From the NCBI GenBank assembly GCA_000004695.1, contig CM000152.2, forward strand, positions 2,656,001 through 2,720,000: a stretch of DNA of 64,000 bases, in the 5' to 3' direction. Position 1 is the first letter of the stretch. Each line of letters begins with the position of its first letter. The translations under genes were made by a program, and so were the position numbers. The stretch comes from Dictyostelium discoideum. Lineage: Eukaryota. Below the pieces are notes generated by a model. The model was not told the origin of the DNA, ran no database searches, and was given only the letters and a program-made list of their open reading frames with translations. Below, piece after piece: positions 1-36,965 of the stretch.

Positions 1-13
1 TTATTATTATTTT

Positions 14-1370
14 TTAAAGTTCAATTTTAGGTTCCCAAGTTGACAGATTCCAATCTTTCACTTTTGGGTGAGCGAATTGTTGTTTATATTTTGAAGTTCT
101 GAGAATAAAATTTTGAAATGGGAAATTTGTTAAAGGAGTATCAAATAGGTATAAATGAACTGTTGATTGTGGTATTTCAGTTATTTTTTGATTAAATCCA
201 TCTAATAAAGACAAATCAGTAACACCATTTGGTATTGAACCTTTTAATAATGGTTTTTTAATTGCACCAACAAATAGATGTGTAATTGATTGTGGTAGCA
301 TACCTTCTTTTAGTTGAACATTGAATCCATCAAGTAATACCAAATATTTAACCGATGTTGGAATTGAACCTATTTTAATTGTTTTAACACTTGGTGCAAT
401 CGCTAAATGAGTAGTACCATTTGGAATGATAGAATCATTTTTATAAATAAAACATTCTTTTCCTCCAGCTTTATATAAATAATAATTTATATTAATAACT
501 TCTATTAAAACAATCTAATATTATAATTCTATTAAAATACTATAGTATTTTTTTAAAATATTTACCAATAACTCTTTTTGGATCCTTTACATTTGTAATA
601 GAGAGAGAATTGCTAATTTCAAATATTTCTTTAATTGATTCTTTAACTTGTTCACTATTATTTACAAAATTTACATTTTTATATTGATCCATTAGTTCAT
701 TGATTTTATTTTCATTTTGATTATCTTTTATTAATAGTCGTGATTGACAACAATGTTTTAATATTTCAATATGTTGATAACTATTATTATCATTAATGAT
801 TTGATCAATATTTATTTGATTTATTGTATTTTTATATTTATTTGTAATTAAATTAATATTATTTGAATAATCATGTACAATGGTTGAAATGTTTGTATTG
901 ATATCTTTATTTTCATCATAGAGTGTTACTAATTGTTTGATTTTATCAATTTCGATGATTGGTAATAATTTGGGGAGTTCTTTAAATACTTCTGTGATTG
1001 TATTTACATTTTCAGTGTGTTTATCTTCTAATGATTTAAATAAATTATTTGATTCATTTAATAACTCATTATTGATACCTATTTGTTTATCTAAATTTTG
1101 AAGGTGATTATTTTTAAATTCTTCAAAGATTTCTTTTGAATTCTCTACATCTATACGACCAAATTTATGACCATTATGATCTAAAAGAATACATTCATTA
1201 CATACTACATCCTGTTATAATTGTAATCATACAAAAATGAGTGACAATTACTTTTTATTTAAAGGGTGGAAACATGTTAAAATAATTACCTTACATGTTG
1301 CACAAATCATTTTGATTTTGTGCTCTTTATGTATTGCACATTTGTTATCATATTTACTTATACTATCCAT
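14..1370 (-). CDS. B-box zinc finger / FNIP-repeat protein, paralog 1 (3 exons, about 393 aa)
   Basis: Minus-strand ATG at 1370. Exon 1 (1290..1370) encodes MDSISKYDNKCAIHKEHKIKMICATCK, the start of a B-box Zn finger. A GTAATT donor follows. Exon 2 (566..1211) begins DVVCNECILLDHNGHKF (rest of the B-box). Exon 3 (14..468) carries FNIP repeats (GSIPxxV..LLDGFNQ..IPQS), with a TAA stop at 14..16. Introns are 1212..1289 and 469..565 with GT..AG ends. Seven paralogous copies follow downstream. Confidence 0.75.
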
Positions 1371-2211
1371 CGTGTGAAAGAATTTTTATGAAAAATTAGG
1401 GAAAAAAAAAAAATTTTGAAAAAAAAAAAAATATTATACTATTTTTTTTTTTTTTAAAAATTTAAGTCAAAATTTGAGTTGACAAAATTTAAGTCAATTA
1501 TTTTTTTATTTTTAACATATTTTTCATAAAAAAAAAAAAAATAAAATAAAAACAAGGGATAGGCATTAATTTTTTACTCTTTTTTTAAAAAAAATAAAAT
1601 TAAGTTTTCAATTAGTTTTCAAATAATTTTTATTCACTTCCCACAATCCCATTATTATTATTATATATTTGATACCTTTTTTAAAAGTAAAATATTAAAA
1701 TAATTTTTTTTTTTCAATTTTTTCAATTTTTTTTTTTTTTTTTCATTTTCATTTTAAAGTAGGCAATATAATATTAGTGAATGAATATATAAATGAATAA
1801 ATAAACGAATAAATAAATGAATAAATAAATGAATAAATAGACAAATAAACAAATAAACAATAAATAATAATTAAAAAACATCAAGTAGCTATTTCCAACA
1901 GGTTATCAAGTGGATTTATTCAATTTAGTTTAAATGGTAATTTTCTACTCATGACGGTAGTGATTGTAGAAATGGTGTTCAACAATTATCATTTGAAAAG
2001 GGTTTCTTTTTTAGAGTAGATAGTTCTTTATTTGAATTTTAAACCAAATTTAGTTAAACAATAAAATAAAATTTTTTTTTTTTTTTTCAAAACATATTTA
2101 CAAAGTTTTAGATTTATTAAAACTAGTTTTATTTTATTTATTTATTTTTTTTTTTTTTTTTTTCAATCAAGATTGTAGTTTTATTTTATTATCTTTTTTT
2201 ATTGTTTTTAG

Positions 2212-3580
2212 TTATTATTATTATTAAGATTTGATTGAGAAGGTAATCTTTTTGGTAAAATTTTAGATGGAGTTGATGGTGCAGTATTTTGATCAATTTT
2301 AGTCCAAATTTCTTTAGCAGAACCACCAGAAACTTTATTAGTTTGAGTAGTGGTGGTTGAAGAAGAAGATGATGATGTAACAATGGTTTAGCAGTTACAA
2401 CACTTTCAAGAGTTGGTAATTTTGGAGATGGTGTAGTTGATAATGTTGAATTATCAATAGTTGTGGCCAATAATGATTCTCTTGATGATTCTTTAACTAA
2501 TGATGGTACAATAATTGATACCATCATTAGTTTAAGCACCACTTATTGTACCATCACTAATAAGTTCATCATCATCCATTGGTATATTAATAATATTAAC
2601 TGGTAATGGTAATGGCGAATCTAATTGTTGTTGTTGTGGTGGTGGTGATGTTGTTGTTTTTGTTGTTGTTGAAGAAGATGAAGAAGATGAAGAAGATGAT
2701 CTTAATTGCAGTGGTTGTAGTTGATTTATTACATTCTTCAATTGGTTCCTCTGGAATTGCATGCTTCAGTTTCTTGTTTAGTTAATTCTTTAGTTGGTTT
2801 AATTTCTTGTAAAATTTGACTAGCCGTTGTTACATTATGTTGATTTAAATCTTGTGATGAAGATAAAGAATTCTCTGCATTAACTTTTGATTGTAAAATA
2901 TCAAATGGTGATAATACTTCAGGTGCTTCATCAATCGATTTTGGATGATTGTTACTATTATGTTGTTGTTGTTGTGATGATGATGATATTGATAATGATG
3001 AAGATGAAGGTGAAGATGAAGCTGATTGATGATTTTCTCTTTCTTTACCAAGGAAATCAGTTGATCAATTCAAAGAAGAATTTAATTTTGGCATCATATT
3101 GCACCGACTGATGGTTTGCGTTGAATAAAACTTGTTGATCTGGTGATGATGGTATACCCCTAATTGTTGGGGATTATCCAACTGATACACTTGTAGTAGT
3201 ATTACCACCAATATTATTACTACTAGTATTTAATGGAGTTGGAATTGGTGTTAATGCACTACTTAATGATGGTGAAGATTGAGCTGATGATATCACATTA
3301 TTATTATTATTTATTTTTTATTATTGATAACAACTGGAGTAACACTTAGAATTGTTTTGAAAGAAACCTTCACTATCTAATTTTGCTGCTTTTGTTCTTT
3401 CATCTTTTGAAATTAATACCCAATTAAGTATTTTAATTTTGGTAATTCATTAATAACAAATAATATAAACTCTTCACATTTCTTTTAAATTAAATTATTT
3501 TCAAATGATAAATATTCTGAAGTTTTAGATTTCTTTAATGTTTGTTTGATAATTTGTTGTCCTAAAATTGAAAATATGAA
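2212..3580 (-). pseudogene. Degenerate S/T/Q-rich low-complexity ORF cluster (frame-disrupted gene or pseudogene)
   Basis: Minus-strand ORFs 2189..2542 and 2532..2762 and neighbouring frames encode Ser/Thr/Gln/Pro-rich low-complexity peptide. Coding potential is spread over all three frames with several internal stops, and no clean GT-AG exon model could be built by eye. Confidence 0.3.
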
Positions 3581-3583
3581 AAA

Positions 3584-3615
<32 letters not shown>

Positions 3616-3659
3616 ATAATAATAATTAACCATTAAAATAGGAATTAATAATTAAAAAC

Positions 3660-3815
3660 AAAAAAATAATAAACTTTATTTGTTTTTTTGAAAAAAAAAA
3701 AAATTTAAGGTCAGTGAAATTAAATAAAAAAATTCAATGCTACTGTAGTGAAATTAAATAGTAAAATTCACTACGCTGGGCAGTGAAATTTTATTGAAAA
3801 TTCCCTACAACAATA
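3660..3815 (+). repeat. Solo terminal repeat of the Tdd-4-like DNA transposon (about 156 bp)
   Basis: Near-identical to 31975..32134 and the inverse of 27533..27690. It contains the subterminal palindromic motifs ggtcagtgaaatt and cactacgctactgtagtgaaatt and ends in ccctacaaca. No transposon body lies on either side. Confidence 0.7.
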
Positions 3816-4229
3816 TCTTTATTTTCATCATAGAGTGTTACTAATTGTTTGATTTTATCAATTTCAATGATTTGTAATAATTTGGAGAGTTCTTTAAATA
3901 CTTCTGTGATTGTGTTTACATTTTCAGTATGTTTATCTTCTAATGGTTTAAATAAATTAATTGATTCATTTAATAACTCAAAGATTTCTTTTGAATTCTC
4001 TACACCAATACGATCAAATTTATGGCCATTATGATCTAAAAGAATACATTCTACACATACTACTACCTATTATATTTATAATAATCATACAAAAATGAGT
4101 AAGGATCTTTTATTATTTAAAGAGGTGGATATTTGTTACGATAATTACCTTACATGTTGCACAAATCATTTTAATATCGTGCTCTTTATGTATAGCACAT
4201 TTGTTATCATATTTATTTATATTATTCAT
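3816..4229 (-). pseudogene. B-box/FNIP paralog 2: 5' fragment only, truncated at the solo transposon repeat
   Basis: It has the exon-1 B-box start (ATG at 4229), the intron, and the first ~300 nt of exon 2 with a ~60-nt internal deletion relative to paralog 1. The sequence stops abruptly at 3816, right against the ccctacaaca terminus of the repeat. Confidence 0.7.
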
Positions 4230-4365
4230 TGTGTGAGAATTATTAAGAAAAAATAATGGAAAAAAAAAAAAAATTTAGAAAAAAAAAGTTTCTGGATTTT
4301 CAATTTAAATCAAAAAAAAAAAAAAACCCAGTTGCGATTTTAAAATTATTTTATTATTTTTTAAT

Positions 4366-4401
<36 letters not shown>

Positions 4402-4726
4402 CTTAAAAATTTAGTTATTTGACTGGAATAATTTATAATCTTAAATTTTATATTGGTTTTTTTTTTTTTATTTTTTTTTTTTTATTTTTTTAAAAACTTA
4501 TTTGTGATAATTTTTTAAAAGATTTTTTTATATAAAATATTGCCTATCTTTATTCCCAAAAAAAAAAAAAATTATAAAAAAATAAATGATAAATTATTAA
4601 ATAATAAAAATAGAAATTTTGAGAAAAAAAAAAAATAAAATAAAAAAAATGGTGAAAATGACCTAATAGATTTATTTAATGATGTTTTGTTATTATTTTA
4701 TAATTCAACTTTTTTTAAAAACTCAC

Positions 4727-5510
4727 CTAAAGTTCAAGTTTAGTCTCCCAAACACCATCCCAATTATTCACATTTGGATAAGTGAGTTGTTGTTTATATT
4801 TTGTGCTTCTGTATATGGTTTTGGAATATGGGAATTTTGTTAAAGGAGTATCAAAAAGTATTAATTGATTAACTGATTGTGGTATTTCAGTTATTTCTTG
4901 ATTAAATCCATCAAATAAAAGTAAATAATAAACACCATTTGGTATTGAACCTTTTAATAATGGTTTTTTAATTGCACCAACCAATAGAGATAATTGACTG
5001 TGGTAGCATACCTTCTGTTAGTTCAACATTGAATCCATCAAGTAATAGCAAAGCTTGAACCGATGTTGGAATTGAACCTGTTTTAATTGTTTTAGTACTT
5101 GGTGCAATCGCTACATGAGTAGTACCATTTAGAACCATAGAATCCTCTTTATAAATAAAATATTCAGCTCCTCCAGCTTAAATAAAAAATTTAATATTAA
5201 TAACCTCCATTAAAACAATCTAATATCATTATAATTCTATTAAAATAAAAATGAATATTTACAAATAACTCTTTTTGGATCCTTTACATTTGTAATATAG
5301 GGAGAATAGGTAATTTCAAATATTTCTTTAATTGATTCTTTAACTTGTTCACAATTATTTACAATATTTACATTTTTATATTGATTCATTAATTCATTGA
5401 TTTTATTTTCATTTTGATTATCTTTTAATAATAATTTTGATTGAGAACAATGTTTTAATATTTCAATATGTTGATCGTTATTATTATTAATGATTTTATC
5501 AATTTTTAAT
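4727..5510 (-). pseudogene. B-box/FNIP paralog 3: 3' fragment with frameshift
   Basis: ORF 4727..4984 encodes FNIP repeats, and the upstream exon-3 and exon-2 homologs are present. The reading frame breaks around 4985..5170. The copy ends at about 5510 without a B-box exon. Confidence 0.65.
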
Positions 5511-5755
5511 TAATATTAAAATTTTTTTTTTATGGCAAGTTTCTTTTTTATTATCAGTTTGTTATAAATTCTATTATATTATAATAAAATAGTAAAATTT
5601 CTAACTTTTTTTTTCCAGTGGGTGTATATTGTCTCTTGTGAAAAAAATAAAATAAAATAAAATAAAATAAAATAAAATAAAATAAAATAAAATAAAATAA
5701 AATAAAATAAAAAATGATAAACTGGATTTATTTAATGATGTTTTTATGAATTCAC

Positions 5756-7115
5756 TTAAAATTCAATTATAGGCTCCCAACCACCACCATCCCAATTATT
5801 CACATTTGAACAGTGAGTGAGTTTTTGTTTATATTTTGGGTTTCTGTAAATGGTTTTGGAATATGGGAAATTTGTTAAAAGAGTATCGAAAAGTAATAAT
5901 TGATAAACTGATTGTGGTATTTCACTGATTGCTTGATTAAATCCATCTAATAAAAATAAACATAAAACACCATTTGGTATTGAACCTTTTAATAATGGTT
6001 TTTTAATTGCACCAACTAATAGAGATTTAATTGATTGTGGTAGCATACCTTCTGTTAGTTCAACATTGAATCCATCAAGTAATATCAAATATTGAACCGA
6101 TGTTGGAATTGAACCTATTTTAATTGTTTTAACACTTGGTGCAATCGCTACACGAACAGTACCATTTGGAATGATAGAATCATTTTTATAAATAAAATAT
6201 TCTTTTCCTCCAGCTTTATATAAATAATAATTTATATTAATAACCTCTATTAAAACAATCTAATATTATAATTCTATTAAAATACTATAGTATTTTTTTA
6301 AAATATTTACCAGTAACTCTTTTTGGATCCTTTACATTTGTAATAGAGAGAGAATTGCTAATTTCAAATATTTCTTTAATTGATTCTTTAACTTGTTTAC
6401 TATTATTTACAATATTTACATTTTTATATTGATTTATTAATTCTTTGATTTTATTTTCATTTTGATTATCTTTTATTAATAGTCGTGATTGACAACAATG
6501 TTTTAATATTTCAATATGTTGATAACTATTATTATTATTAATGATTTGATCAATATTTATATGATTTATTGTATTTTTATATTTATTTGTAATTAAATTA
6601 ATATTATTTAAATTATCATGTATAATGGTTGAAATGTTTGTATTGATATCTTTATTTTCATCATAGAGTGTTACTAATTGTTTGATTTTATCAATTTCAA
6701 TGATTGGTAATATTTTGGAGAGTTCTTTAAATACTTCTGTGATTGTATTTACATTTTCAGTATGTTTATCTTCTATTGATTTAAATAAATTATTTGATTT
6801 ATTTAATAACTCATTATTGATACCTATTTGTTTATCTAAATTTTGAAGGTGATTATTTTTAAATTCTTCAAAGATTTCTTTTGAATTCTCTACATCTATA
6901 CGACCAAATTTATGACCATTATGATCTAAAAGAATACATTCATTACATACTACATCCTGTTATAATTGTAATCATACAAAAATGAGTGACAATTACTTTT
7001 TATTTAAAGGGTGGAAACATGTTAAAATAATTACCTTACATGTTGCACAAATCATTTTGATTTTGTGCTCTTTATGTATTGCACATTTGTTATCATATTT
7101 ATTTATACTATCCAT
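5756..7115 (-). CDS. B-box zinc finger / FNIP-repeat protein, paralog 4 (3 exons, about 394 aa)
   Basis: Exon 1 7035..7115, exon 2 6311..6956, exon 3 5756..6213. The layout is the same as paralog 1: exon 2 is the identical 646 nt and exon 3 is one codon longer. Confidence 0.75.
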
Positions 7116-7712
7116 CGTGTGAAAGAATTTTTATTAAAAATTAGGGAAAAAAAAAAAATTTGAAAAAAAAAAAAAATTTGAAAATCTGATCTTATATTTT
7201 TTTATTTTTTTTTTTTTTTTTAAAAAATTTAAGTCAAAATTTGAGTTGACAAAATTTAAGTCTATTATTTTTTTATTTTTACCATATTTTTCATAAAAAA
7301 AAAAAAATAAAATAAAAACAAAGGATAGGCATTAATTTTTTACTCTTTTTTAAAAAAAAAAAATTTATTTCAAAAAAATAAAATTAAGTTTTCAAATTAT
7401 TTTTATTCACGATTTTTTTTATTTTTTTTTTTTATTCAATTTAATTTTTTATTCACTTCCACAATTCCATTATTATTATATTTGATACCTTTTTTAAAAG
7501 TAAAATAAACTTAAACAATAAATAAAATAAAATAAAATAAAAAGATAATATTAAAATAAACATAATCAAATATTAATTAACATAAAAAATTTTTTTAATG
7601 CACCACCAACTTTGGATTGAAACAAATTTTTTTAATGGAAATCCTAAATAAACTAAATTTAAATAATAAAATTTTTTAAATTTTGAACAGTCACTTTCAT
7701 TTATTTTGAATT

Positions 7713-7745
<33 letters not shown>

Positions 7746-8393
7746 CTTTCATTCATTGTTATTCAATAACAAATAATTAATTGTAAATAATTTACTTTTA
7801 TTTGAGCAAAAATCAAATGTAATTTCAAAATTCAAAATAAAATAAAAAAAAATAAATATATATTTTAATTTGTTTATTTTATTAAAATTTTTAAAAGCAG
7901 ATTTATTACTATTATTATTATTTTCACATGATTTGCGAAGTTTTTTTATTATTATTTTTATTTCCTTATTTTTATTTCCTTTTTTCCATTTCTTTTCTTT
8001 TCTTTCCTTTTCTTTCTTTTTATTTTTTATTTTTTTTATATATTTGACTTGGTTAGAAAGAACTTAAAATAAAAATTTTTAAAAATAAATAAATGCACAA
8101 AAAAAAAAAAAAGAGAAATATTAACACTTTTGTTTTTTGTTTTATAACAACACTATAAAAAAAAAATAAAAAATTAAACAAAATAAAAAAAAAATAAATA
8201 AATAAAAATAAAAATAAAAACAATTTTTAGGTTTGGGTTACCAAGATTTATTTAAATTTAAATTTAAAAAAGGAAAAAAAAAATTTTAGAAATCTGGAAA
8301 AAAAAAAAAAACTGAAACCAAATGGAAGAATTGGGAACCAATTTGCCAAAATCAAGTTTGTAGTGTTGTTATTATTATATAATTCATATTTTT

Positions 8394-9872
8394 TTAAAGT
8401 TCAATTTTAATCTCCCAATTACTAAGATCCCAATTATTCACATTTGAGTGAGAGAGTTGTTGTTTATATTTTGGGCTTCTGTAAATGTATTTGGAAAGTG
8501 GGATATTTTTGAAAGGAGTATTCAAAAGGTAGAAACTGTTAACTGATTGTGGCAATTCACTTATTTCTTGATTAAATCCATCTAATAAAAACAAATTTAA
8601 AACACCATTTGGTATTGAACCTTTTAATAATGGTTTTTTAATTGCACCTACCAATAGAGATTTAATTGATTGTGGTAGCATACCTTCTGTTAGTTCAACA
8701 TTGAATCCATCAAGTAATAGCAAATATTCAACCGATTTTGGAATTGAACCTACTTTAATTGTTTTAACACTTGGTGCAATAGCTACAAATCCACTACCAT
8801 TTGGAACGATAGAATCATCTTTATAAATAAAATACTCAATTCCTACAACTTTATAAAATAATTTAATAACCTCCATTATAACAATCTAATATTATTATAA
8901 TTGTTGTAGTGAAAATGAGCAGGTTTTTTTTTTTTACCAACAGTAGTGAAAAATTTCACCAAGTATAGCAGGGAAAAAAAAAATGTTAAATTTCCCTACA
9001 ACAATAATTCTATTAAAATAATATAGAATATTTACCAGTAACTCTTTTTGGATCCTTTACATTTGTAATAGAGGGAAAATCGCTAATTTCGAATATTTCT
9101 TTAATTGATTCTTTAACTTGTTCACTATTATTTACAATATTTACATTTTTATATTGATTCATTAGTTCATTAATTTTATTTTCATTTTGATTATCTTTTA
9201 TTAGTAGTCGTGATTGATGACAATGTTTTAATATTTCAATATGTTGATAGTTATTATTATTATAATTATTATTATTATTAATATTATTTTTATTATTATT
9301 AATGATTTGATCAATATTTATATGATTTATTGTATTTTTATATTTATTTGTAATTAAATTAATAGTATTTAAATTATCATGTACAATGGTTGAAATGTTT
9401 GTATTGATATCTTTATTTTCATCATAGAGTGTTACTAATTGTTTGATTTTATCAATTTCAATGATTGGTAATAATTTGGAGAGTTCTTTAAATTCTTCTG
9501 TGATTGTATTTACATTTTCAGTGTGTTTATCTTCTAATGATTTAAATAAATTATTTGATTTATTTAATAGCTCATTATTGATACCAATTTGTTTATCTAA
9601 ATTTTGAATGTGATTATTTTTAAATTCTTCAAAGATTTCTTTTGAATTCTCTACATCTATACGATCAAGTTTATGACCATTATGATCTAAAACAATACAT
9701 TCAACACATACTACTACCTATTAAATTTATAATAATCATATCAAAGAATCACTTTTTATTTAAAGGGGTGGATATATGTTACAATAATTACCTTACATTT
9801 TGTACAAATCAATTTAATATCATGCCCTTTATGTATTGCACATTTGTTATCATATTTATTTATACTATCCAT
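8394..9872 (-). CDS. B-box zinc finger / FNIP-repeat protein, paralog 5 (3 exons)
   Basis: ATG at 9872 (MDSINKYDNKCAIHKGHDIKLICTKCK). Exon 3 is 8394..8849 (VVGIEYFIYKDDSIVPNGS then FNIP repeats). Intron 2 is enlarged by a ~90-bp MITE-like insertion. Confidence 0.7.
8904..8993. mobile_element. MITE-like ~90-bp element derived from the Tdd-4-like transposon terminus, inside intron 2 of paralog 5
   Basis: It is absent from the equivalent intron in paralogs 1 and 4. Its termini are inverted (gttgtagtgaaaa ... tttccctacaac) and match the TGTTGTAGGG/CCCTACAACA ends of the large element. It is flanked by ataat(t) on both sides, which looks like a 5-6-bp target-site duplication. Confidence 0.55.
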
Positions 9873-11939
9873 TGTGTGAGAGAATTTTTAAGAAAATTTA
9901 AGAAAAAAAAAAAATTTGGGAAAAAAAAAAAAAAAAAAAAAAAATTAAAATAAAATAAAATCTAATTTTTTGATGTTGGAAATCTTGTTTTGTGAAAAAA
10001 AAAAAAAAGATATTATTTTTTTTTTATTTTATATTTTATTAAACTAATATTAATTTTTTATTTATTTTTGACTATTTAAATTGTTTTTATTTTTTTATTA
10101 TTTAATCATTTGATTGTTTTAATATTTTTTACGAATAATTTGACCATTATTATAGTCTATTTTGGTCTTTTATAGTATATATTTGATCATGATCGGAACC
10201 TGGGAATCCCTCAGGATGTAGTAACATTAATCTGTATGATCTAGTGCATACCTCACAATGAAATTTGACCACATGACTTTGCTTTTACAAGAATAGTATT
10301 TTTTTTTGGATTTGGTAATCAGTGGGAGTTTCAATATCAATAGAGGTAGATTCAGCAGCAATTGCACGATAAAGCACATTAGAAATAGGATGTTTTAAAA
10401 AGCCAACTGATTCAACAAGTTTATCATATCTCTTTTCCATTATTTCCTTGCATACAACTCAAAGTGAATGAATGGTTGACTATAGTGATTTTGAAATGTT
10501 TTTGGACTAATACCAAAAGTAACACATATCTCATAAATTGGAAGATATTGTTTCCATTATAAGAGAGTCTTACACAAAAAAAATAAAAAATAAATAATGT
10601 TGTTAATAATTCATTTTATTTTTTACATTTTTTATTTTTTTTTTTTTTACATTTTATTTAATTTAGGACTTGGTGTAATTTTACTAAATAATTTAATTTA
10701 ATTTAATTTAATTTAATTTATTTTAATTTTTTTTCATATAATTTAAAAAAATGAGTGGTTTTTAATGGTAATATTATTGTCTAAAAATAGATATTTTTTT
10801 TTTAAAATAATATTATTTTTTTTTTTCATTCAAATTTAGAAATTTCCGGAAAATCTTAAAAAATACGTATTTCATTTAAAAGTAAAGCTATTTTTGTTTT
10901 TTTTTCTTTAAAAAAAACATATTATTGTAAAAAAAAGATGTATTTTTGGAAAAAAAATATTATTTTAAAATTTTATAATGTTAAGGGGGTAAAAAAAAAA
11001 TTTTTACTAATTATGTTAATCGGGGTGTTAAATATTCTTTAAAAATTTTTTTTTGAAGTTGTGTTTTTTAATTAAATAAATAAATTCATAATTATTTCCT
11101 TCTATTAATAAAAAAAAAAAAAACCCAGTAAAATGTTAAAATATAATTAATTAAATCAAATTTTAATAAAAGTTTGTAATTCTATTTTATAAATAAATAA
11201 AAATTATCAAAAAATAAGATTAATAATAACAAAAAAATAAAATAAAATTTATAAAAAATGAAACTTTTTATAAAAAAAAAAATAGCATTTTTTATTAAAA
11301 TTTAATTAATACTAAAAAATATTAGAATTTTTAAATTTTATTAATTGGTGTTATTTTTTTTTTTAAAAATAATTATAATAATTATTAGAAAATAGGATAT
11401 TTTATAAAAATAAGATTATTTATAAAAAATAACCTTTATTATTATATATTAAAAAATAAGATAAATAATAATAAAAAAAAATATATTAATAATTGATACA
11501 TTAAATAATTTTTAACATATTTTATTAAAATATAATAGATCTTGTATGGAAAATCATCACTGGTGATTTAAGTAATCAATTTTTATTTTTGGAGAATAAG
11601 ATGTTTAAAAAATAATAAAATAAATTATAAATTGGAAAATTTTATAATATTCAACATATTTATTTAAAATATAAGTAATCCAACTTGGTTTTTTTTTTAT
11701 TTTTTTATTTTCTTTTTTTTTTATCCATTTTTACTATATTTTCAAACTTTTTTTTTTATTTTCAAACTTTTCATTTTTACATAAAATTTAATATAAAAAA
11801 ATATAATAAAATTAAAAAAAAATAAAATAACAAAATTTGTTTAAGGGTCATTTTTATTTTTATTGATTTTATTGATTTTATTATTTTTATTTTTATTATT
11901 TTTATTGATTTTATTATTTTTATTTTTGTCGTTTTAGAA

Positions 11940-12001
<62 letters not shown>

Positions 12002-12170
12002 TGGAATCTAATAAAATAAATTGTTGTTGTAATTGAATTAATCTTTTTGTTTGAAAAATATTAATTATAAGCAGAAAGTTAAATAATTAAGATTAATATT
12101 TAATTAGCTATATAAGATTGGAAAAAAAAAAAAAAAAAAAAAATTCGATCTAATTGATTATTATTATTTT

Positions 12171-12926
12171 TTAAAGTTCAATTTTAGGTTCCCAATTTGA
12201 CACACCATTCCAATTACTCATTTTTGGGTGAGTGAGTTGTTGTTTATATTTTGGAGTTCTGTGAATAAAATTTTGAAATGGGAAATTTGTTAAAGGAGTA
12301 TCAAATAGGAATAAATTAGCTGATTGGGGTATTTCAGTTATTTTTTGATTAAATCCATCTAATAAAAACAAATCAGTAACACCATTTGGTATTGAACCTT
12401 TTAATAATGGTTTTTTAATTGCACCAACAAATAGATATCTAATTGATTGTGGTAGCATACCTTCTTTTAATTGAACATTGAATCCATCAAGTAATATCAC
12501 ACATTTAACCGATGTTGGAATTGAACCTATTTTAACTGTTTTAACACTTGGTGCAATCGCTACATGAGTTGTACCATTTGGAATGATAGAATCATCTTTA
12601 AAAATAAGATATTCATTTCCATCAGCTTTATATAAATAATAATTTAATATTAATAAAATAATTAAAACAATCTAATATTATTATAATTTGATTAAAATAC
12701 TTAATGATATTTACAAGTAACTCTTTTTGGGTCCTTTACATTTATAATAGAGAGAATTACTAATTTCAAATATTTCTTTAATTAAATTTTTAACATGTTC
12801 ACTATTATTTACAAAATTTACTTTTTTATATTGATTCATTAATTCTTTGATTTTTTTTTCATTTTGATTATCTTTTATTAATGGTTGTAATTGACAACAA
12901 TGTTTTAATATTTCAATATGTTGATG

Positions 12927-12998
<72 letters not shown>

Positions 12999-13593
12999 AT
13001 TATTATTATTATTATTAATGATTTGATCAATATTTATTTGATTTATTGTATTTTTATATTTATTTGTAATTAAATTAAAAATATTTAAATTATCATGTAT
13101 AGTGGTTGAAATATTTGTTTTGATATCTTTATTTTCATCATAGAGTGTTACTAATTGTTTGATTTTATCAATTTCAATGATTTGTAATAATTTGAAGAGT
13201 TCTTTAAATACTTCTGTGATTGTATTTACATTTTCAGTATGTTTATCTTCTAATGGTTTAAATAAATTATTTGATTCATTTAATAACTCATTATTGATAT
13301 CAATTTGTTTATCTAAATTTTGAATATGATTTTTAAATTCTTCAAAGATTTCTTTTGAATTCTCTACACCAATACGATCAAATTTATGGCCATTATGATC
13401 TATAAGAATACATTCTACACATACTACTACCTATTATATTTATAATAATCATACAAAAATGAGTAAGGATCTTTTTTTATTTAAAGAGGTGGATATATGT
13501 TACGATTATTACCTTACATATTGCACAAATCATTTTAATATCTTGCTCTTTATGTATAGCACATTTGTTATCATATTTATTTATATTATTCAT
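12171..13593 (-). CDS. B-box zinc finger / FNIP-repeat protein, paralog 6 (3 exons) with an expanded poly-Asn tract
   Basis: ATG at 13593 and FNIP exon at 12171..12500 and upstream. Exon 2 contains an (ATT)n run of ~90 nt at 12935..13020, which reads as (AAT)n, poly-Asn, on the coding strand. The other paralogs have only ~4-8 Asn at that position. Confidence 0.7.
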
Positions 13594-14349: not shown

Positions 14350-15723
14350 TTAAAATTCAATTTTAGGCTCCCAATAATAAGCAGTATCCCAAGTATACAC
14401 CCTTGGGTGAGTGATTTGTTGTTTATATTTTGTGCTTCTGAATATGTTTTTAGAATATGGGAATTTTGTTAAAGGAGTGTCAAAAAGTAATAATTCTTTA
14501 ACTGATTGTGGTATTTCACTTATTGCTTGATTAAATCCATCTAAAAAAAACAAATTTAAAACACCATTTGGTATTGAACTTTTTAATAATGGTTTTCTAA
14601 TTGCACCTACAAAAAGATGTGTAATTGATTGTGGTAGCATGCCTTCTGTTAGTTTAACATTGAATCCATCAAGTAATATCACACATTTAACTGATGTTGG
14701 AATTGAACCTATTTTAACTGTTTTAACACTTGGTGCAATCGCTACATGAGTTGTACCATTTGGAATGATAGAATCATCTTTATAAATAAAACATTCATTT
14801 CCACCAGCTTTATATAAATAATAATTTAATATTAATAAAATAATTAAAACAATCTAATATTATTATAATTTTATTAAAATACTTAATGATATTTACCAGT
14901 AACTCTTTTTGGGTCCTTTACATTTGTAATAGAGAGAGAATTGCTAATTTCGAATATTTCTTTAATTGATTCTTTAACTTGTTCACAATTATTTACAATA
15001 TTTACATTTTTATATTGATTTATTAATTCTTGGATTTTATTTTCATTTTGATTATCTTTTATTAACAGTCGTGATTGATAACAATGTTTTAATATTTCAA
15101 TATGTTGATAGTTATTATTATTTTTATTATTATTAATGATTTGATCAATATTTATATGATTTATTGTATTTTTATATTTATTTGTAATTAAATTAATATT
15201 ATTTAAATTATCATGTATAGTGGTTGAAATGTTTGTATTGATATCTTTATTTTCATCATAGAGTGTTACTAATTGTTTGATTTTATCAATTTCAATGATT
15301 TGTAATAATTTGGAGAGTTCTTTAAATACTTCTGTGATTGTATTTACATTTTCAGTGTGTTTATCTTCTAATGATTTAAATAAATTATTTGATTCATTTA
15401 ATAACTCATTATTGATATCAATTTGTTTATCTAAATTTTGAATGTGATTATTTTTAAATTCTTCAAAGATTGTTTTTGAATTCTCTGCATTTATAAAATC
15501 AAATCTATGACCATTATGATCTGAAACAATACATCCATCACATACTACTACCTTGAAATAATAAAAATAGAGACAATGAGAATTACTTTTTGTTTTAACA
15601 AGTGGTAAATGTTTTTAAATAATAAAAAACTATAACTACCTTACATGTTGAACAAACTAATCTAATATCAAAATCTTTATGCAATGCACATTTATTATCA
15701 TATTTATTAATTAGAGTAGTCAT
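14350..15723 (-). CDS. B-box zinc finger / FNIP-repeat protein, paralog 7 (3 exons)
   Basis: ATG at 15723 (MTTLINKYDNKCALHKDFDIRLVCSTCK). FNIP exon at 14350..14682 and upstream, with conserved intron positions. Confidence 0.7.
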
Positions 15724-15812
15724 TTGGTTTGGAAAAAATATAAATATTTAGCAATTAAAATTTTATTAATTTGTGAAATTTTCAAAAAAAAAAAAAATAA
15801 AAAAAAAATAAA

Positions 15813-15849
<37 letters not shown>

Positions 15850-15899
15850 AAATAAAAATAAAATTTTGAACCAAAAAAGGATTTAAATTCATTTTAATT

Positions 15900-15935
<36 letters not shown>

Positions 15936-17661: not shown

Positions 17662-17666
<5 letters not shown>
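16370..17666 (-). CDS. B-box zinc finger / FNIP-repeat protein, paralog 8 (diverged; B-box region not split by an intron)
   Basis: ORF 16887..17666 begins MAGKFDNKCTLHNDYDYRFICSDCRVPVCDYCIVSKNHH, a B-box read without an intron. ORF 16370..16831 carries FNIP repeats, with an intron between them at about 16832..16905. A T60 tract lies directly upstream of the ATG. Confidence 0.65.
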
Positions 17667-17715
<49 letters not shown>

Positions 17716-18874: not shown

Positions 18875-18948
<74 letters not shown>

Positions 18949-26997: not shown

Positions 26998-27540
26998 ATG
27001 GAACAATTAGTAACTATATGTTTTAAATTATATAGTGACTCTTTTGATGAAAATGATTTAAATTCACTTCAAGTATTAATTGAATCATTTAATGCAAAAG
27101 TAAATTTAATTACTGAAACAGAAATAATGAATTTCCACTTGTTGTTACATTATCCAATCTATATAAAAAATTGGGGTGCACCAAAATACACTTCAGCTGA
27201 AACTTTTGAAGCACAATTATCAAGAATTAAAAATTATTTAAATAATAATACAAATAATAGGGATGAACAATATGAAAGGGTTACCAAATTAAACATGGTG
27301 AAATTTTTTAATTCAGTAGATAAATTAAAAAGTATTGAGCCTGAAAGTACAGCATTAATTATTGGTAACAAAATAAAAAATCCAGGTAATATAGATAATA
27401 TAAAAATTAAATTAGATTCATTATTTCAAAATTATAAAAATATAACTTTTCACTCATCAATTAAAAATAATAAAGAAATATACAATATTGGTGATGCAGT
27501 TGAAGTTGCATCAGATAATGAACTTTCAGGTATGTTGTAG
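26998..27540 (+). CDS. Hypothetical ORF (180 aa) ending exactly at the terminus of the Tdd-4-like transposon
   Basis: A 180-aa ORF with reasonable composition and no recognised domain. Its final codons ATG TTG TAG overlap the terminal TGTTGTAGGG of the inverted repeat, so the C-terminus is probably created by the insertion. Confidence 0.3.
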   Translation: MEQLVTICFKLYSDSFDENDLNSLQVLIESFNAKVNLITETEIMNFHLLLHYPIYIKNWGAPKYTSAETFEAQLSRIKNYLNNNTNNRDEQYERVTKLNMVKFFNSVDKLKSIEPESTALIIGNKIKNPGNIDNIKIKLDSLFQNYKNITFHSSIKNNKEIYNIGDAVEVASDNELSGML

Positions 27541-27735
27541 GGAATTTTCCATAAAATTTCACTACAGTAGCGTAGTGAATTTTATTATTTAATTTCACTA
27601 CAGTAGCGTAGTGAAAAAAAAAAATCACTGACCTTAAATTTTTTTTTTTTTCAAAAAACAAATAAAGTTTATTAAATTGAAATTTTATTTTTTGTTTTAA
27701 TTATTATTTTATTTATTTTTATTATAATTATTGTT

Positions 27736-27774
<39 letters not shown>

Positions 27775-28549
27775 CAATTTTTTTTTTTAAATTTTTTTCA
27801 TTTTTTATTTGTTTATTAAATTGTATTTTTATTTTTTGTTTTAATTATTATTTTATTTATTATTATTGTTAATTTTTTTTTTTTTTCAATTTTTTTTTTT
27901 TTAATTTATTTTTATTAATTTATTTTTATTAACTCCCTGAGTTGTTCAATTGCTTGATTTACCATATCACTGTAAACACTGCACACAATTGAATTTTTTC
28001 TAGCTTTGTTACCTCTGGTGCATTTGATGTTTTTGCATTTTCCTTTGTATACAAAAAAGTCCAAATATAATTCGTTTTCTATTACAGTTTTTACACAATG
28101 TTGGTGAAATTGTTTTGATTTTAATTCTAATGCTTCTAACATCATATTTGAATTTTTAACGATTAAAGCATCACCACTATTTACATATAGTACTTTGGCT
28201 GCTTTTTCGAGGAATTTAGTCAAATTTTCCTCTGAATCTAACTATTCTTCATTGCCATATTCAATGGCTAAATTTCTTAAGAGTTTTATCGAATCTATTA
28301 ATTCTTCGATCATTCTTTTTTTTTGAAATTTTTTTTTATTTTGTTTTTTCAATTTTTTTTTTTTATTTTGTTTTTTCAATTTTTTTTAAGTTTTATTTTT
28401 TTTTATTTTTTTTTATTTTTTTTAACAAATGTAATTTTTTTTTATTTTTTTCAATTTTTTTTTTTTTTTAATTTTTAATTTTTTTTTTTTTTTTTAATTT
28501 TTTGTGTTGATTTGTGTTTTTTTTGTTTTTTTGATTTGGCCACTTGTTT

Positions 28550-31500
28550 TTATTTTCTAATTTCCCCATACCCCCTTCTATTAATTGCAACCAAATCAAG
28601 TTCTAATTTTTGTGTCCTTGTTAACTTTGTTTTTGCAACTTTTTTTGAAGGTATCACATTAACGATTTTTCCTATTGATGGTGATTTGGAAGGTGATTTA
28701 AATGGTGATTTAAAAGGTGAATTGGAAGGTGATTTAAATGGTGAATTGGAAGGTGAAATGGATGGTGATTTGGAAGGTGATTTAAATGGTGATTTGGAAG
28801 GTGATTTAAATGGTGATTTAAATGGTGAATTGGAAGGTGAAATGGATGGTGATTTGAGAGGTGATTTGGATGGTTTAGAATGTGATTTTAAAGGAGGTTT
28901 ATTAACAATTGGTATCTTATGAGGACGGCCTCTGAGACGTTTAACAGTTGTTACTATACCACTACCAGATTGTGGTATAGTATACGATGGTATTATTTGC
29001 ACTTGAGGTATTGGTGGTACTATTTCTTTTAAATTCATATCCTTTCTCAAACAATTCATTAAATTTGGCGCTGTTGGATTATTATTTAAAAATGGGAGTA
29101 TTTCTTCTTGTTCCATTTCATTATTGAGTTTGTGTTGAAATGGATTATCGTTAATGATAGGTGGAATATTTGATGGATTGTTAAGAGCATCTTCCAAAAC
29201 CCTAAATGGATCATTTTGTGTTACCAATTGATGCAAGTTGAAATTGGATAAATCCTTACCAAGATTTTTAATAAACTGAACCAGAAATTCAATAACTTTC
29301 CCATCATTATTTAAATAAAGACCAGAAGTAAAAGAATCAATATCTTTTTGTATGTTTGGCGATGTTCTAAAAATATCAACTGTTGATTGTTTATAAAGAA
29401 CCAACTTGTTACCTCCTACAAAACCAGAGTATAAACCTTTTTTTTGAAGGCTATTGATTCCATCTTCCAAAAATTCAAGTTTATAAAGTTGTTTAGTGTC
29501 TTCCTGTATTACCTTATGAATTTTACACAAAATCAATATTTTCTATTAGAATTAAATATAAAATTTGTTAATTATTACTGTTTCATATATTATTAATCTT
29601 TATGTTTTAATTACTTACATTATTTTTTTTAATTTCTAGAAAGAGTACAGTATCACCAACTTTCAATCCCTTTGGTGGTTTTGAATTCCATTGATTTTGG
29701 TAACTTGTGAGATTTTCAAGAATAATAGCTGTTCTTTCTTCTTTTGAAACATCTGAAACACCAATTGATTGAGAGTCTTGTTCTGATTGAACATTAATAA
29801 ACAAAGGAACAATACCAACAGCTTGAGATGGTGTCATTTTAATTGTTCTTGTTTTTGTATTATTGTAATCATACAAAGCTTGTTTTAATAGTTCAGAAAG
29901 AGACCTAGAAGTACCATCAAGAAAACTAAAATTTATTTATAAATGATTAATTAATAAACATATCGATAATTTATATTGTTCACAATATCATACTCTTGTT
30001 GTTTTAATTTTGAGATCCTCTCCTTGATAGTTCGATTCAATCTTTCTACCATACCTTGAGTTGTTGGTGTACGAGGAGCTCCATGTGCTGACTTGGAGCC
30101 TGGAAAAAGTTTTAGGAATTCTTTTTGGACTTTGTTTTTAAATTCACGTCCATTATCGCAGTGCCATACTTTCACAGGTTTGCCAAAGTACGTGAGAGCC
30201 AAAAAATTGTATATGGGAACTGTTCTCTTTGTTGTCAAACATCTAAAAAATAAATGATAATTAAAATAAAAAAAGAAAACTAATAAATTAATAAATAAAA
30301 AATAAATACCTTCCAGTAGCAAATTTTGTAAAAGAATCTATGCATAGAATAATGTAAACAACATCGGTGTCGTACGGTTGTACAGAGTCATATTGGATAA
30401 GATCATCTAGTTTAGTTAGTATCTTTTCATTATCATCATCGTATGTAACTTTTTCTTTATGTTCACCTTTAATTGATGTTAAATCATAAACCAATCTTGA
30501 GTATTCCTCGGTATCTACAATTGGAGCAAAATCCTTTGTTATACCTATTAATTTATTTAAATTATTAAAAGAGTTTTAATATAAAAGTTACAAAACATCA
30601 TATAAAAATGATTGATACCAAACCTTTTATTCTATTTCGTTGGCAAATGTCACACGTATCTACTGCATCAGATACAAAAGAATACAATCCCATATTATAA
30701 TATTTAGTCTTGTAGTTCCCATAGGTTGCATCTCTTCCTACACAGCGAAGAAAAAACCACCTTTAAATTCGCTTTAAATTAAATTTAAATTTGCTTTAAA
30801 GTCCTGAATTAAAGCAATTTTAAAGGTAATTTTAAAGGTAATTTTTAAGGTTACTTTAAAATCACCTTAAAAATTACCTTTAAAATTCCTTTAAAAATTA
30901 CTTTTTTAATCGCTTTAAAAGCGAGGTCCTGAGTTCGAAGCCGTTATTTAACGGATAAATTTTTTAAAATTTTTTTTTTAATTTTTCAAAAAATTACCAA
31001 AAGGGATTCGATCCCCCGACCCTCTATCAAAGGGTAGTCTCATCAACCATTACACCATTTGATTGCTTTGATGAAAATTTAAAAATGATAGAATATTTTA
31101 TCCCCATTTTTTTGTTCTAAAATTAGATCTTTTTTATTAAAAACCTTAAATTTATGTTTAAAGGAAATTTAAATTCACTTTAAATCTACTTTAAATCTAC
31201 TTTAAATTCTATTTAAAATTAATTTAAAATAAATTTTAAAGGTATTTTTAAATATCTTAAAAATTATCTTAAAAATTACCTTAAAAATCACCTTTAAAAT
31301 CACCTTTAAAATCACCTTTAAAATTGCTTAAAAATTTATTTTAAAGCAAATTTTAAAGGCATTTTTAAATATCTTTAAAATTACCTTAAAAATTACCTTA
31401 AAAATGAATTTTTTAAACGCGGCTTTAAATTCAATTTAAATCCAATTTAAATCAACTTTTCTTTAAATTTGCTTTAAAGGTGCATTTTTCTTTGCTGTGT

Positions 31501-31808
31501 ATATGACCTTTATGCATTTCTTCCCAGAGTGATACCATTCTATAATCATTAATTACTTCTAAACACACTTCTTTTGATATATTTCTATCTCCGCCACAAT
31601 TCATGACTTTTTTTTCAATTCTAAATAATTTTTCTTTTCTGTTTCTGTTTTTTATTGGTCAGAATTTAAAAAATGATTGTGTTATTGTAAGGAAAAATAT
31701 TTACTCATCATGTAAAAATTTATAATTTTTATGTTTAGTATTTTCAAAATTATTATCTTCAATAAATTTTAAATAATTTATAATTTCATTTATTTTATCT
31801 TGTTTCAT
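28550..31808 (-). CDS. Integrase-like DDE transposase of the Tdd-4-like element (multi-exon, about 700 aa; one exon disrupted by a nested insertion)
   Basis: ATG at 31808 (MKQDKINEII...). An HHCC zinc-finger-like region lies at about 30560..30700 (CDICQRNRIK), downstream of the insertion. The catalytic core lies at about 29950..30480 (DTDVVYIILCIDSFTKFATGR; WHCDNGREF; GAPRTPTTQGMVERLNRTIKE). The C-terminal SPxK/KSP repeat region is ORF 28550..29536. Exons are separated by short AT-rich GT..AG introns. The exon at about 31503..31640 is interrupted by the 30741..31499 insertion. Confidence 0.55.
30741..31499 (+). mobile_element. Unclassified ~760-bp TIR element (TTTAAAGG-type tandem arrays plus tRNA-derived core), copy 1, nested in the transposase exon
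   Basis: Terminal inverted repeats CACAGCGAAGAAAAAACCACCTTTAAA ... TTTAAAGGTGCATTTTTCTTTGCTGTG. Each half carries arrays of 8-10-bp units (ttaaaggta, ttaaaatcacc, tttaaatct and similar). The centre has a tRNA-like segment with a B-box-like GGGATCGAATCCC and an ACCCT-TTGATAG-AGGGT anticodon-like hairpin, but it does not fold as a complete tRNA. Confidence 0.6.
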
Positions 31809-31823
31809 TTTGGGAAAATGAAA

Positions 31824-31858
<35 letters not shown>

Positions 31859-32134
31859 TGTTGGGGAAAAAAAAAAAAAGTTTTGGCGCAAAAAAAAAAA
31901 AAAAAATAAAATAAAAAAAAAAAAAAATAAAATAAAAAAAAAAAAAAATAAAAAAACTTATATAGAACTAATAATCAAATAAAAGATAATAATTTAATAA
32001 ACTTTATTTGTTTTTTGAAAAAAAAAAAATTTAGGGTCAGTGATTTTTTTTTTTCACTACGCTACTGTAGTGAAATTAAATAATAAAATTCACTACGCTA
32101 CTGTAGTGAAATTTTATTGAAAATTCCCTACAAC

Positions 32135-35100
32135 ACCGACTCTCAAATGTTTAATCGTCCCAAACAGAGAAAACATGGATAAACCCAAGATTATAATTAA
32201 CTCTCATTCCAAAGAAAAACAATTCAAATTAATTCTCGATACTGGAAGTAATGTTAGTTTAATCAATAAGAGGTTGATTTCAAAAGATATGAAGAACCAC
32301 GTTCACAAAACCAAAGCCAAGATTAACTTCCCGCTACTAGACGTCAAAGAAGAGTTTGTTGAACAAATCAATATGCAAGTTAACAATGAAATTCATAACT
32401 TCTTTATTATAGAATTGGATATCATTGATGTACTTTTCGGTAATGATATCCTTAAGGACTCTATCATTAACCAAAAAGATAAAATAATCAAGTTGAATAA
32501 TAGTACATACAAAATTAATTATCAACAGTCGAATCAATTACATTGTAATGTAAAAGCTCCAAGAAAACATGTTACCGTATCCAATGATAATCAGTCACAT
32601 AATCTACTGGATGATGATGAAGATATCAAAGAACAAGTTACAAAGTTTGTTGAAAGCATTCCTTCACAACTTTGTGATATACTGGTTAAAACTAATCCAG
32701 AAGAAGAAGAGATACAAGCAGTACGAGATTTCATTAATGACTCATTCGAAGATGTTATAGTAGATAAACTTCCTGATATTCCAGATCAGATTAACAATTC
32801 CAGAAGAGGTAATATCATACATAATATCATAATCAAGAAAGGTCAAGATGTTGAACCAACAAAGAAACAAATCTATTACTCAACAGATGATCATAAGAGA
32901 CATGTCGAAGAGATGGTTCTCAAATTTATAGACTTAGGTATTATCAAAAGATCAGAATCAAATTACTCATCTCCAATCATGTTATTAAAGAAGAGAGATT
33001 CATGGCGTGTAGTCCACGACTATCGTCAACTAAATAAAGTCACTGTTAGAGACGATCATCCATTCACTCCGGTTGATAGTCTTTTAAATCAATGTAAAGA
33101 TTCAAAGCTTTTCTCAAAGTTTGACATGATTATGGGTTATTTCCAAGTGTTAATTAATCCAGAACACGCAAAGTACACCGCTTTCATTACACATATTGGT
33201 AAATTTGAATATACTAGAATGCCACAAGGTTTAGTCAACTCTCCATCCACATTCGCCAGATTGATGGTCGAAATATTTGGAAAAATCAAAAGTTTATTAC
33301 AATACTTTGATGATCTTTTGGTTCATTCAAAACTCGACTACATGGTACATTTCATTGAAATCATTAGAATGCTTCTATATTGTAGAAAGTACCTATTATT
33401 CATTTCAAGAGAAAAGAGTGAAATGTTAAAGACTGAAGTTGATTTCCTTGGTTTTCACATTCATAAAGATGGTATATCTCCAAGAGCTGCAAAGGTTAGA
33501 GCTATCTCTGAGTTACCTGAACCAAGAAACGCCAAAGAAGCTGAAGCTGCATTAGGTCTTTTTGGATTCTTCAGGAGACACATTGAAAATTACGCTGAAA
33601 AAACCTATCACCTTTCCAAAGAATCAAAAGGGAAAAACAAGAAAACTCTTTCTGATGAATCACTCAAAGAATTCAATAATCTAAAGAAAGAGTTTGAAGG
33701 TGAAAATATTGTCGCTATTCCAATTGAACAAGATAACTCCATATCAATAGATATCGAAAAGGTTAAAGCATCAACAGACATGCCAATCCATTCAGATAAT
33801 AATAATATAAACAATGGTAGTTTTCACTTGTATTGTGATGTTAGTGATAAAGCATTATCAGGTGTGTTATATCAAATCCAAGGTGATAAATTCAAAGTCA
33901 TTTGGTTCCACAGTAGAAAACTTACTGATACTCAAAAGAGGTACAGCATAGGTGATAGAGAGTTCCTTTCAATCATTGATTCTCTAAAGAAGTTTCAACA
34001 TTTATTAATTGGTAAAAAGGTTTCAATCTACACTGATCACCAAAATCTTACATATATTATCAATAAGTCAAACGATAAACCGTTCACAAAGAGACAAGAT
34101 AATTATATGAAATATATTAAAGAATTTGATTATGAATTAAGACATATAAGTGGTAAAAAGAATGGTATAGCTGATTTCTTGTCTCGTAAATATGATAATT
34201 TCCAATGGGATGAATCGTTTTTAAATAAAATTAAGGAAGAACAAATCAATTCTCAATGGCTATTAGAGATGAAAAAGAATCCAAATTTATGCATTGAAGA
34301 AATTAATGATATCTGCTACCTTAGTGAAGATGGGTTCAAGAAATTAATCATCATAGATAAAGAAACTATTCATACCGTCATTAGAGAATATCACGATACC
34401 AAATATAGTGGTCATCACGCTTTAGATATCACATACAATAATATAAGACAAGATTACTATTTCAAAGAAATGTTTTCTATTATCAAGAGGTACATAAAGT
34501 CTTGTGCAACATGTCAATTGAACATTAACCGTAAAGATAATGGTATACTCCAAAGTTTAGAAATTCCCTTTGAAGTTTGGAGAGATATATCAATCGATTT
34601 CTTATCGCTACCAAAAACAATGTATGCAATAAACGGATTTACAGTTGAAGTCGATCAAGTTTGTGTCATTGTTTGTAGATTATCTAAAATGGTTCATATA
34701 GTTCCATGTCATAAGACAATAGATGCCCAACATACTGCTCAATTATTGTTGAATCATGTGTTCAGACTCCATGGTTATCCAAGAACAATCGTCTCCGATA
34801 GAGATCCAAGGTTCCTTTCAGAAATATGGGAGAGATGGGCAAAGACGATGGATTCTAAACTCAAGATGACTGTGGCACACAGAGCACAAGCTGATGGTCA
34901 AACTGAAAGAATGAATAGAGAAATTATTAGAATATTAACTAAAGCCTCTACAGAGTATGGGGAGAATTGGTCAGATATCATTCCACTTATTGAATTTGCA
35001 ATGAACTCATCAATGAGCAAGTCTACAAAGATGTCACCATTCCAAATCGTTTATGGATTCAATCCACCAACTCCCGTTAATCACTTCAATTCATTAACAA

Positions 35101-36913: not shown

Positions 36914-36965
<52 letters not shown>

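Follow-up and report, generated by a model that had tools for sequence, protein, structure and literature searches.

In a tandem array of B-box/FNIP genes of Dictyostelium discoideum, two stretches that resemble the ends of a Tdd transposon lie apart from any transposon body. The question raised by this locus is what these two stretches are and how they came to lie within genes. A preliminary description of the sequence took the first to be a solo terminal repeat of Tdd-4 that truncates one gene of the array, and the second to be a miniature, MITE-like derivative of the same transposon located in an intron of another gene. The Dictyostelium genome is two-thirds coding, so most of its mobile elements persist by inserting into one another or by choosing tRNA genes as targets. 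A 2017 review (PMC5633606) states that its DNA transposons (Tdd, DDT and thug) lack detailed study and that no one has examined how they are expressed or controlled, and TDD-4 and TDD-5 are the only Dictyostelium elements listed in PMC2836005 (citing Wells 1999 and Glockner 2001). We analysed the 64,000 nucleotides that contain both stretches, referred to below as the window, together with other Dictyostelium loci. In our judgement the two are quite probably separate relics of cut-and-paste transposition by the Tdd family (Ginger2/Tdd, with an integrase-like DDE transposase) in the B-box/FNIP array.

The B-box/FNIP gene array

The window has a G+C content of about 20% and long A/T runs, and the array, on the minus strand, fills its first 17.5 kb. 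Family alignment identified five full copies (14-1429, 5700-7173, 8390-9929, 12122-13604 and 14350-15711), one divergent copy (16528-17519) and two fragments, 3813-4455 being a 5' part and 4728-5533 a 3' part. Positions 1-18895 of the window are 99.8% identical to a chromosome-scale contig of GCA_054883475.1. The syntenic regions of two wild D. discoideum assemblies (L002 and L003) show only about 91% identity to the window at 14-26 kb, and the B-box/FNIP copy number also differs in them, which indicates that the array turns over quickly. The 3' fragment at 4728-5533 breaks at unit position 1286 and no transposon end is found at the break, so that at least one further rearrangement of the array was unrelated to Tdd termini.

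The copy numbered 5 in the preliminary description is DDB_G0279877 (8394..9872, minus strand), with exons at 9872-9792, 9717-9036 and 8848-8394. The translation of this three-exon model is 100% identical over its full length to DDB_G0279877 (P0001) of D. discoideum AX4.

A miniature inverted-repeat element in intron 2 of DDB_G0279877

Intron 2 of this gene (8849..9035, minus strand) has 187 nt, or 80 nt once an inverted-repeat element and one copy of the pentamer ATAAT are subtracted. The element is a genuine insertion of non-coding inverted-repeat DNA of the Tdd kind. It had been given as about 90 bp at 8904..8993, and its limits have to be corrected to 8902..9003 (plus strand), that is 102 bp; its position in intron 2 of copy 5 and its ATAAT duplication agree with what had been reported. 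Its ends read TGTTGTAG…CTACAACA, with the termini TGTTGTAGTGAAA... and ...TTTCCCTACAACA, and the whole forms one imperfect palindrome. A perfect 5-bp duplication of ATAAT flanks it on both sides, at 8897..8901 and 9004..9008, where the paralogues have one copy; by arithmetic from the base composition of the window, a chance match of 5-bp flanks has a probability of about 0.004. The annotated coding sequence of the gene is intact.

Ginger2/Tdd termini follow the rule TGTNR...YNACA, and a 5-bp target duplication together with TGTNR termini are the hallmarks of TDD-4 and TDD-5 (PMC2836005). In the miniature element TGTTG...CAACA is found at 8902 and 9003. It resembles TDD-4 and TDD-5 in its TGTNR termini (TGTTG), its 5-bp duplication, its AT-rich target and its subterminal GTAG(T/G)GAAA repeats, whereas those two elements are 3.8 kb long with repeats of 260-297 bp and the miniature element has 102 bp and is non-coding. 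No reading frame covers the entire 102 bp. As RNA, the whole element is predicted to form a single foldback of -26.5 kcal/mol (z -5.3), and a search of positions 3400-9300 against Rfam found no RNA family.

The terminal 13-mer TGTTGTAGKGAAA, with at most one mismatch, has five matches in the 64 kb, which are exactly five element termini, the expected number being 0.31. The 9-mer GTAGTGAAA occurs nine times in the window, twice of these in the miniature element, and every occurrence lies within Tdd repeats, the orphan repeat described below or the miniature element, with none outside Tdd-type sequences; window base composition predicts about 0.6 matches by chance.

The site before the insertion, and a second copy

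The unoccupied target site is preserved in five paralogues of the window, each with a single ATAAT and with nothing between the flanks that bracket the miniature element. They include copies 1 (523..527) and 4 (6268..6272), from which the element had already been noted to be absent, and three more: the 3' gene fragment 4728-5533 (site at 5231..5235) and the paralogues with sites at 12683..12687 and 14865..14869. In all five the flank alignments overlap by exactly 5 bp, which is the signature of an unoccupied target.

Intron 2 was surveyed in more than 25 members of the gene family from AX4-lineage DNA, two wild D. discoideum strains and D. cf. discoideum; the arrays of both wild D. discoideum strains in this survey are syntenic with the window. 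The miniature element is present in only two of these copies, and its site is unoccupied in all sampled copies of the two wild strains and of D. cf. discoideum. The second copy has 65 bp (L001 21153-21217) and lies about 1.3 kb beyond the window, in a 5'-truncated pseudogene of the B-box/FNIP family. It occupies the identical intron site with the identical duplication, and 37 bp are deleted between two TTTTCACTAC direct repeats. Because it is found at the same site of a paralogous pseudogene it is an inherited copy and not an independent insertion: a single insertion event reached both genes through duplication or gene conversion. Both carriers have a common local intron haplotype. Over 520 bp of flank they are 92.4% identical to each other, compared with 94.7-94.9% to copies without the element. 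As they are not each other's closest relatives over this flank, gene conversion has to be invoked.

Parentage of the miniature element

The miniature element had been ascribed to the Tdd-4 copy of the window. This parentage is not supported, since alignments of the element with the Tdd-4 ends reach only z 2-5, and a direct deletion derivative of that copy was rejected. Only 12 of the 13 terminal nt and the 9-mer motif are common to both; beyond the terminal 13 nt TDD-4 matches the miniature element poorly, whereas a third Tdd-family end matches it much better. This end belongs to a complete Tdd-family element of a wild D. discoideum assembly (L015 3733-12193, GCA_054859385.1), which has the duplication TCATT on both sides, a length of 8.5 kb with nested insertions, and fragments of H2C2 and DDE (rve-type) genes. 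Its DDE fragment (P0041) has 60% identity to the Tdd-4 domain and 66% to that of a second type. The ends of the miniature element are homologous to those of this element, which encodes an integrase-like DDE transposase.

The left end of the L015 element reads TGTTGTAGGGAAATTTAACA-T12-CCCAACTGTAGGGAAAAATAT, and both miniature arms align with it over about 55 nt (scores 39 and 38, z 12.1 and 15.6). Its first 33 nt are identical to the miniature element save for the length of the T-run. An internal inverted copy in the L015 element, at ~4195-4140, reads GGGAAATTTAACA-T10-CCAACTGTAGTGAAAAATTTCAC and, judged from these alignments, appears to be essentially the common ancestor of both arms. The parent is probably a Tdd family different from the Tdd-4 of the window, and the miniature element would be a head-to-head fusion of two outer end pieces of about 50 nt from the L015-type family. 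The outer ~55 nt of the L015 element are the best match to both arms and a 5-bp duplication is found in both elements; the L015 element differs in being 8.5 kb long, in encoding H2C2/DDE sequences, in its nested insertions and in belonging to another strain. No autonomous element of the L015 type was seen in about 156 kb of AX4-lineage DNA, the closest parental end being that of the wild strain.

Several kinds of Tdd-type ends were distinguished in Dictyostelium loci sampled through protein look-ups, namely Tdd-4, a second type (L004, L005 and L015-842), a Tdd-4 variant (L008) and the family of L015 3733-12193. There are at least three kinds of Tdd-type terminal repeat besides Tdd-4 in D. discoideum isolates and D. 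cf. discoideum. Such repeats are located at L008 571-802, 15386-15679 and 6435, L005 12971, L004 9187 and L015 842, and these further repeats all begin with TGTTGTAG(G/T)GAA. The thug elements were also considered as a source of the miniature element and were rejected, since thug-S has an intron and hence is a larger element.

In a genome with about 78% A+T, full of inverted repeats (3286 pairs), an intron difference might be an ordinary AT-rich indel that forms a hairpin and resembles Tdd ends by chance. This explanation is extremely improbable in view of the exact termini, the exact 5-bp duplication, a 9-mer that the element has twice and that is confined to Tdd sequences, and 33 nt nearly identical to the end of a complete element of the Tdd family. 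The termini, the 9-mer, the unoccupied sites and the L015 alignment effectively refute it.

Copy number and MITE status

The Dictyostelium DNA scanned for small inverted pairs amounts to 303 kb counting overlaps, of which an estimated 156 kb or so is of the AX4 lineage (the window and loci L001, L005-L007, L014 and L016). No independent small element with a target duplication was found in these ~300 kb, which hold one independent insertion and one inherited paralogous copy. Two inverted pairs, L008 731-802 and L015 12098-12193, were examined as further miniature elements and rejected; neither is flanked by a duplication and both are located within longer terminal repeats, for which reasons they are read as subterminal repeats. 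The pattern of the termini had no match in metagenome contigs and prokaryote genome contigs, which are collections that do not include Dictyostelium. The core 21-mer had five metagenome matches, all of them in unrelated, apparently bacterial coding sequence (contigs of 34-44% GC).

Like MITEs, the element is short, has no coding capacity and possesses both terminal inverted repeats and a target duplication. It resembles the generic MITEs (Stowaway/Tourist) in its small size, terminal inverted repeats, foldback, target duplication and location in a genic intron, but these are defined by a high copy number and here there is one independent insertion in about 300 kb. A parallel in kind is Ginger2-1N1_NV of Nematostella vectensis (252 bp; PMC2836005, Table 2), likewise a short non-coding Ginger2/Tdd derivative that keeps only the terminal repeats. 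That family has more than 50 copies and 4-bp duplications, whereas the Dictyostelium element has one known independent copy, a 5-bp duplication and less than half the size. PMC2836005 lists the 252-bp non-autonomous family only for Nematostella. We found no description of miniature Tdd derivatives of Dictyostelium in the literature searched, of which the Glockner 2001 catalogue and Repbase were not part, so that an earlier description is possible; searching the literature text with the terminal sequences gave only unrelated primer matches. The suggestion that the transposon had spawned miniature derivatives holds for one insertion of the Tdd kind. A family was not shown, since the other copy is inherited and none independent of it was found in the ~300 kb.

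One could go further and regard the 102-bp foldback as the first recognised member of a multi-copy Tdd/Ginger2 miniature family, mobilised in the NC4/AX4 lineage after its split from the sampled wild isolates, tolerating or preferring introns within a gene-dense genome, and yielding intronic hairpin RNAs that could feed an RNAi or miRNA-like pathway. We regard this as an unlikely extension.

With one independent insertion only, transposition at the miniature stage is indistinguishable from the collapse in place of a longer insertion. A full-length Tdd-family element may have inserted into the intron and then lost its interior, by deletion between or within its long inverted arms or by interrupted gap repair after excision, leaving about 50 nt at each end; it would then never have been mobile as a miniature and there would be no MITE family. 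The single independent site fits such a course, as do the evident tendency of the palindrome to suffer deletions (37 bp lost in the paralogue) and the origin of both arms from the same kind of end as that of a complete element. Yet the arms are symmetric, with about 50 nt each, and have diverged both mutually and from the known parental end, as miniature elements that evolve independently typically do. Moreover an insertion of 4-8 kb in an intron of 80 nt would probably have inactivated the gene, but its coding sequence is intact. We hold this explanation to be improbable.

The preferred explanation is that a non-autonomous element of 102 bp, made up almost entirely of the outermost ~50 nt of a Tdd-family repeat, present twice in inverted orientation, was mobilised in trans and transposed while already miniature. 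Each arm would consist of the terminal TGTTGTAGGGAAATTTAACA, then a T-run and then a subterminal motif of the CCAACTGTAGTGAAAAAT type. A Tdd-family transposase acting in trans would have inserted it into intron 2, an AT-rich target, of the gene ancestral to DDB_G0279877 and duplicated ATAAT there. Tandem duplication or gene conversion would later have carried the occupied intron into a neighbouring paralogue, in which the element would then have lost its 37 bp between the TTTTCACTAC direct repeats.

The orphan terminal repeat and the truncated gene

The second relic is an orphan terminal repeat of the Tdd-4 type (3564..3815, plus strand, terminus at 3815), which has about 250 bp and not the ~156 bp first attributed to it. 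Its outer ~150 bp are clear, and in its inner ~100 bp, which are A/T-rich, the homology is weaker. Window positions 3678-3815 align with both arms of the Tdd-4 element at 27533-32135, and beyond them the weaker homology, to the A/T-rich inner arm, reaches about 3564, so that roughly a whole arm is present; this size fits the published TDD-4 repeat of 260 bp (PMC2836005). Over the terminal 147 alignment columns the orphan repeat is 82-83% identical to the Tdd-4 ends, which are 98-100% identical to one another over the same columns, and this marks it as an old or divergent relic. To the left of the repeat tblastx detected no homology to a Tdd transposase body, and no partner terminus was found in the window at up to two mismatches. 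The locus thus bears a solo Tdd-4-type repeat with neither an adjacent body nor a partner end, as the preliminary description had it.

It was equally right that the repeat ends exactly where the gene fragment begins. The homology to the gene family starts at 3816, directly after ...CCCTACAACA, and at the junction ...CCCTACAACA is followed immediately by ATATCtttattTTCATC, where the paralogues have ...gtattgATATCtttattTTCATC. A junction exact to the base at the terminus of an element is what integration rather than random breakage would be expected to leave. The pentamer ATATC at 3816..3820 is presumably the surviving half of a 5-bp target duplication whose partner copy was lost (intact paralogues read ...gtattgATATCtttatt). 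The gene fragment next to it (3816..4229, minus strand) is the 5' part of its gene, with the B-box; from the ATG at 4229 it runs through exon 1 and intron 1 into exon 2. It covers unit positions 1424-2110 only and is cut about 480 nt after the ATG; some 330 nt of exon 2 are kept and the other ~1 kb of the gene is gone.

The repeat is followed on its inner side by a segment of 2.1 kb (1430-3563) that the arrays of other strains lack. Directly inside the repeat this segment contains a decayed, Ser/Thr/Gln-rich coding-like sequence with several frameshifts (2211..3446, minus strand), which is not a Tdd body; as such the segment was rejected because tblastx found no coding homology to one. The sole detectable homologue of the decayed sequence is a hypothetical protein of a wild strain (P0047), with one weak partial match. 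The annotation of GCA_054883475.1 has a single B-box gene of 404 aa at window 2208-4229 (L001 15644-17665). This predicted chimeric gene crosses the transposon junction, running from the gene fragment through the orphan repeat into the decayed segment; if it were unspliced, its reading frame would stop seven codons into the repeat.

As the 3' part of the gene is missing, a second event after the insertion is needed and the repeat end is not the sole cause of the truncation. We suggest that an older or divergent element of the Tdd-4 type integrated into exon 2 of another member of the array, with ATATC as its target, and that a later deletion or ectopic recombination took away the body and the other end of the element as well as the 3' part of the gene. 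The same event would have joined the orphan repeat to the unrelated decayed coding-like segment. Against a deletion it can be said that the Tdd homology stops near the inner edge of the repeat, which would be a coincidence for a random deletion.

That boundary speaks instead for a composite, in which the orphan repeat would be the right end of a non-autonomous Tdd-type element with the decayed segment at ~1990-3563 as its interior (a captured fragment of a host gene) and with its left end lost or degenerate. The absence of the 2.1-kb segment from the orthologous arrays of other strains points the same way, as does a partial homologue of the 3' end of the segment at about 0.6-2 kb from a related Tdd-type repeat of a wild strain (L008 12760-15679). 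However, a second terminus was not found even at two mismatches, and the similarity in L008 consists of only about 450 bp and a family-level match (70-73%) to a repeat in a transposon cluster, which may be coincidental. Nor would a simple insertion have caused the loss of the 3' part of the gene. A composite element is the weaker alternative to insertion followed by deletion or recombination, and we think it doubtful, slightly more so than the collapse in place considered for the miniature element.

Tdd-4 and exchanges between its copies

The Tdd-4 copy of the window (27533..32135, minus strand) has inverted arms of about 242 bp and an integrase-like gene on the minus strand. Apart from a nested insert it is 99.4% identical to a copy of 3821 bp at L007 6579-10399. 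In copy length, arms and TGTNR termini this agrees with TDD-4 as published (3839 bp with 260-bp arms; PMC2836005), which identifies it as Tdd-4. The nested insert is an inverted-repeat element of 759 bp (30741..31499) that has the ends CACAGCGAAGAAAAA...TTTTTCTTTGCTGTG and duplicated TA at its target. The L007 copy lacks it, further copies of it are found in the window at ~36430-37143 and ~40558-41323 (the latter within a wider stretch, ~40179-41722), and it is probably a known short DNA element.

The flanks of the Tdd-4 copy differ, with AGGTA on the left and CCGAC on the right, and there is no matching target duplication. In GCA_054883475.1 the Tdd-4 copy that corresponds to window 27533 has as its left flank a B-box/FNIP exon 2 that ends in ...AAAAATAAT at the transposon boundary, and another Tdd-4 copy on a different contig has a right flank that starts with ATAATCATATTC... 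and continues that same exon. The two flanks are the halves of one insertion (ATAAT), parted by an exchange between Tdd-4 copies. The halves of a Skipper element with CCGAC are likewise split between Tdd-4 copies. Exchange positions of this kind lie between 27532 and 27533 in the window, between 5382 and 5383 in L016, and between 6578 and 6579 and between 10399 and 10400 in L007. The window and GCA_054883475.1 diverge exactly between 27532 and 27533, the left terminus of Tdd-4, which reflects either a real rearrangement (an inversion or a translocation) or a misjoin in one assembly.

The left flank itself (window 26867-27532) belongs to a repeated element coding for a protein of 607 aa (L007 1791-3614, 99.4% identity), and L007 3336-3348 keeps the unoccupied site, GAACTTTCAGGTA followed by gatggtc. 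Abutting the right end of Tdd-4 is an intact Skipper-type pol reading frame of 1240 aa (32175-35897) with protease, RT, RNase H and integrase domains; the same protein is annotated in GCA_054883475.1.

The proposal that Tdd termini take part in gene-disrupting rearrangements is thus borne out in part. The precise junction truncates one gene and a second B-box/FNIP gene was split by Tdd-4 (ATAAT), with its halves now on different contigs as a precedent for later rearrangement, but the truncation requires a later second event, for which deletion and ectopic recombination would both be candidates.

Biological significance

These findings leave the accepted view of the Tdd transposon mechanism unchanged and belong to ordinary transposon biology. 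Within that frame, the clean insertion in the intron suggests that the integrase-like Tdd transposase can act on a substrate of about 100 bp, and some 50 nt per end may come close to what is minimally required in cis. Such elements can land without harm in the introns of tandem gene families whose members are redundant. The orphan repeat, together with the flank exchanges of Tdd-4, documents Tdd elements reshaping a fast-evolving gene array.
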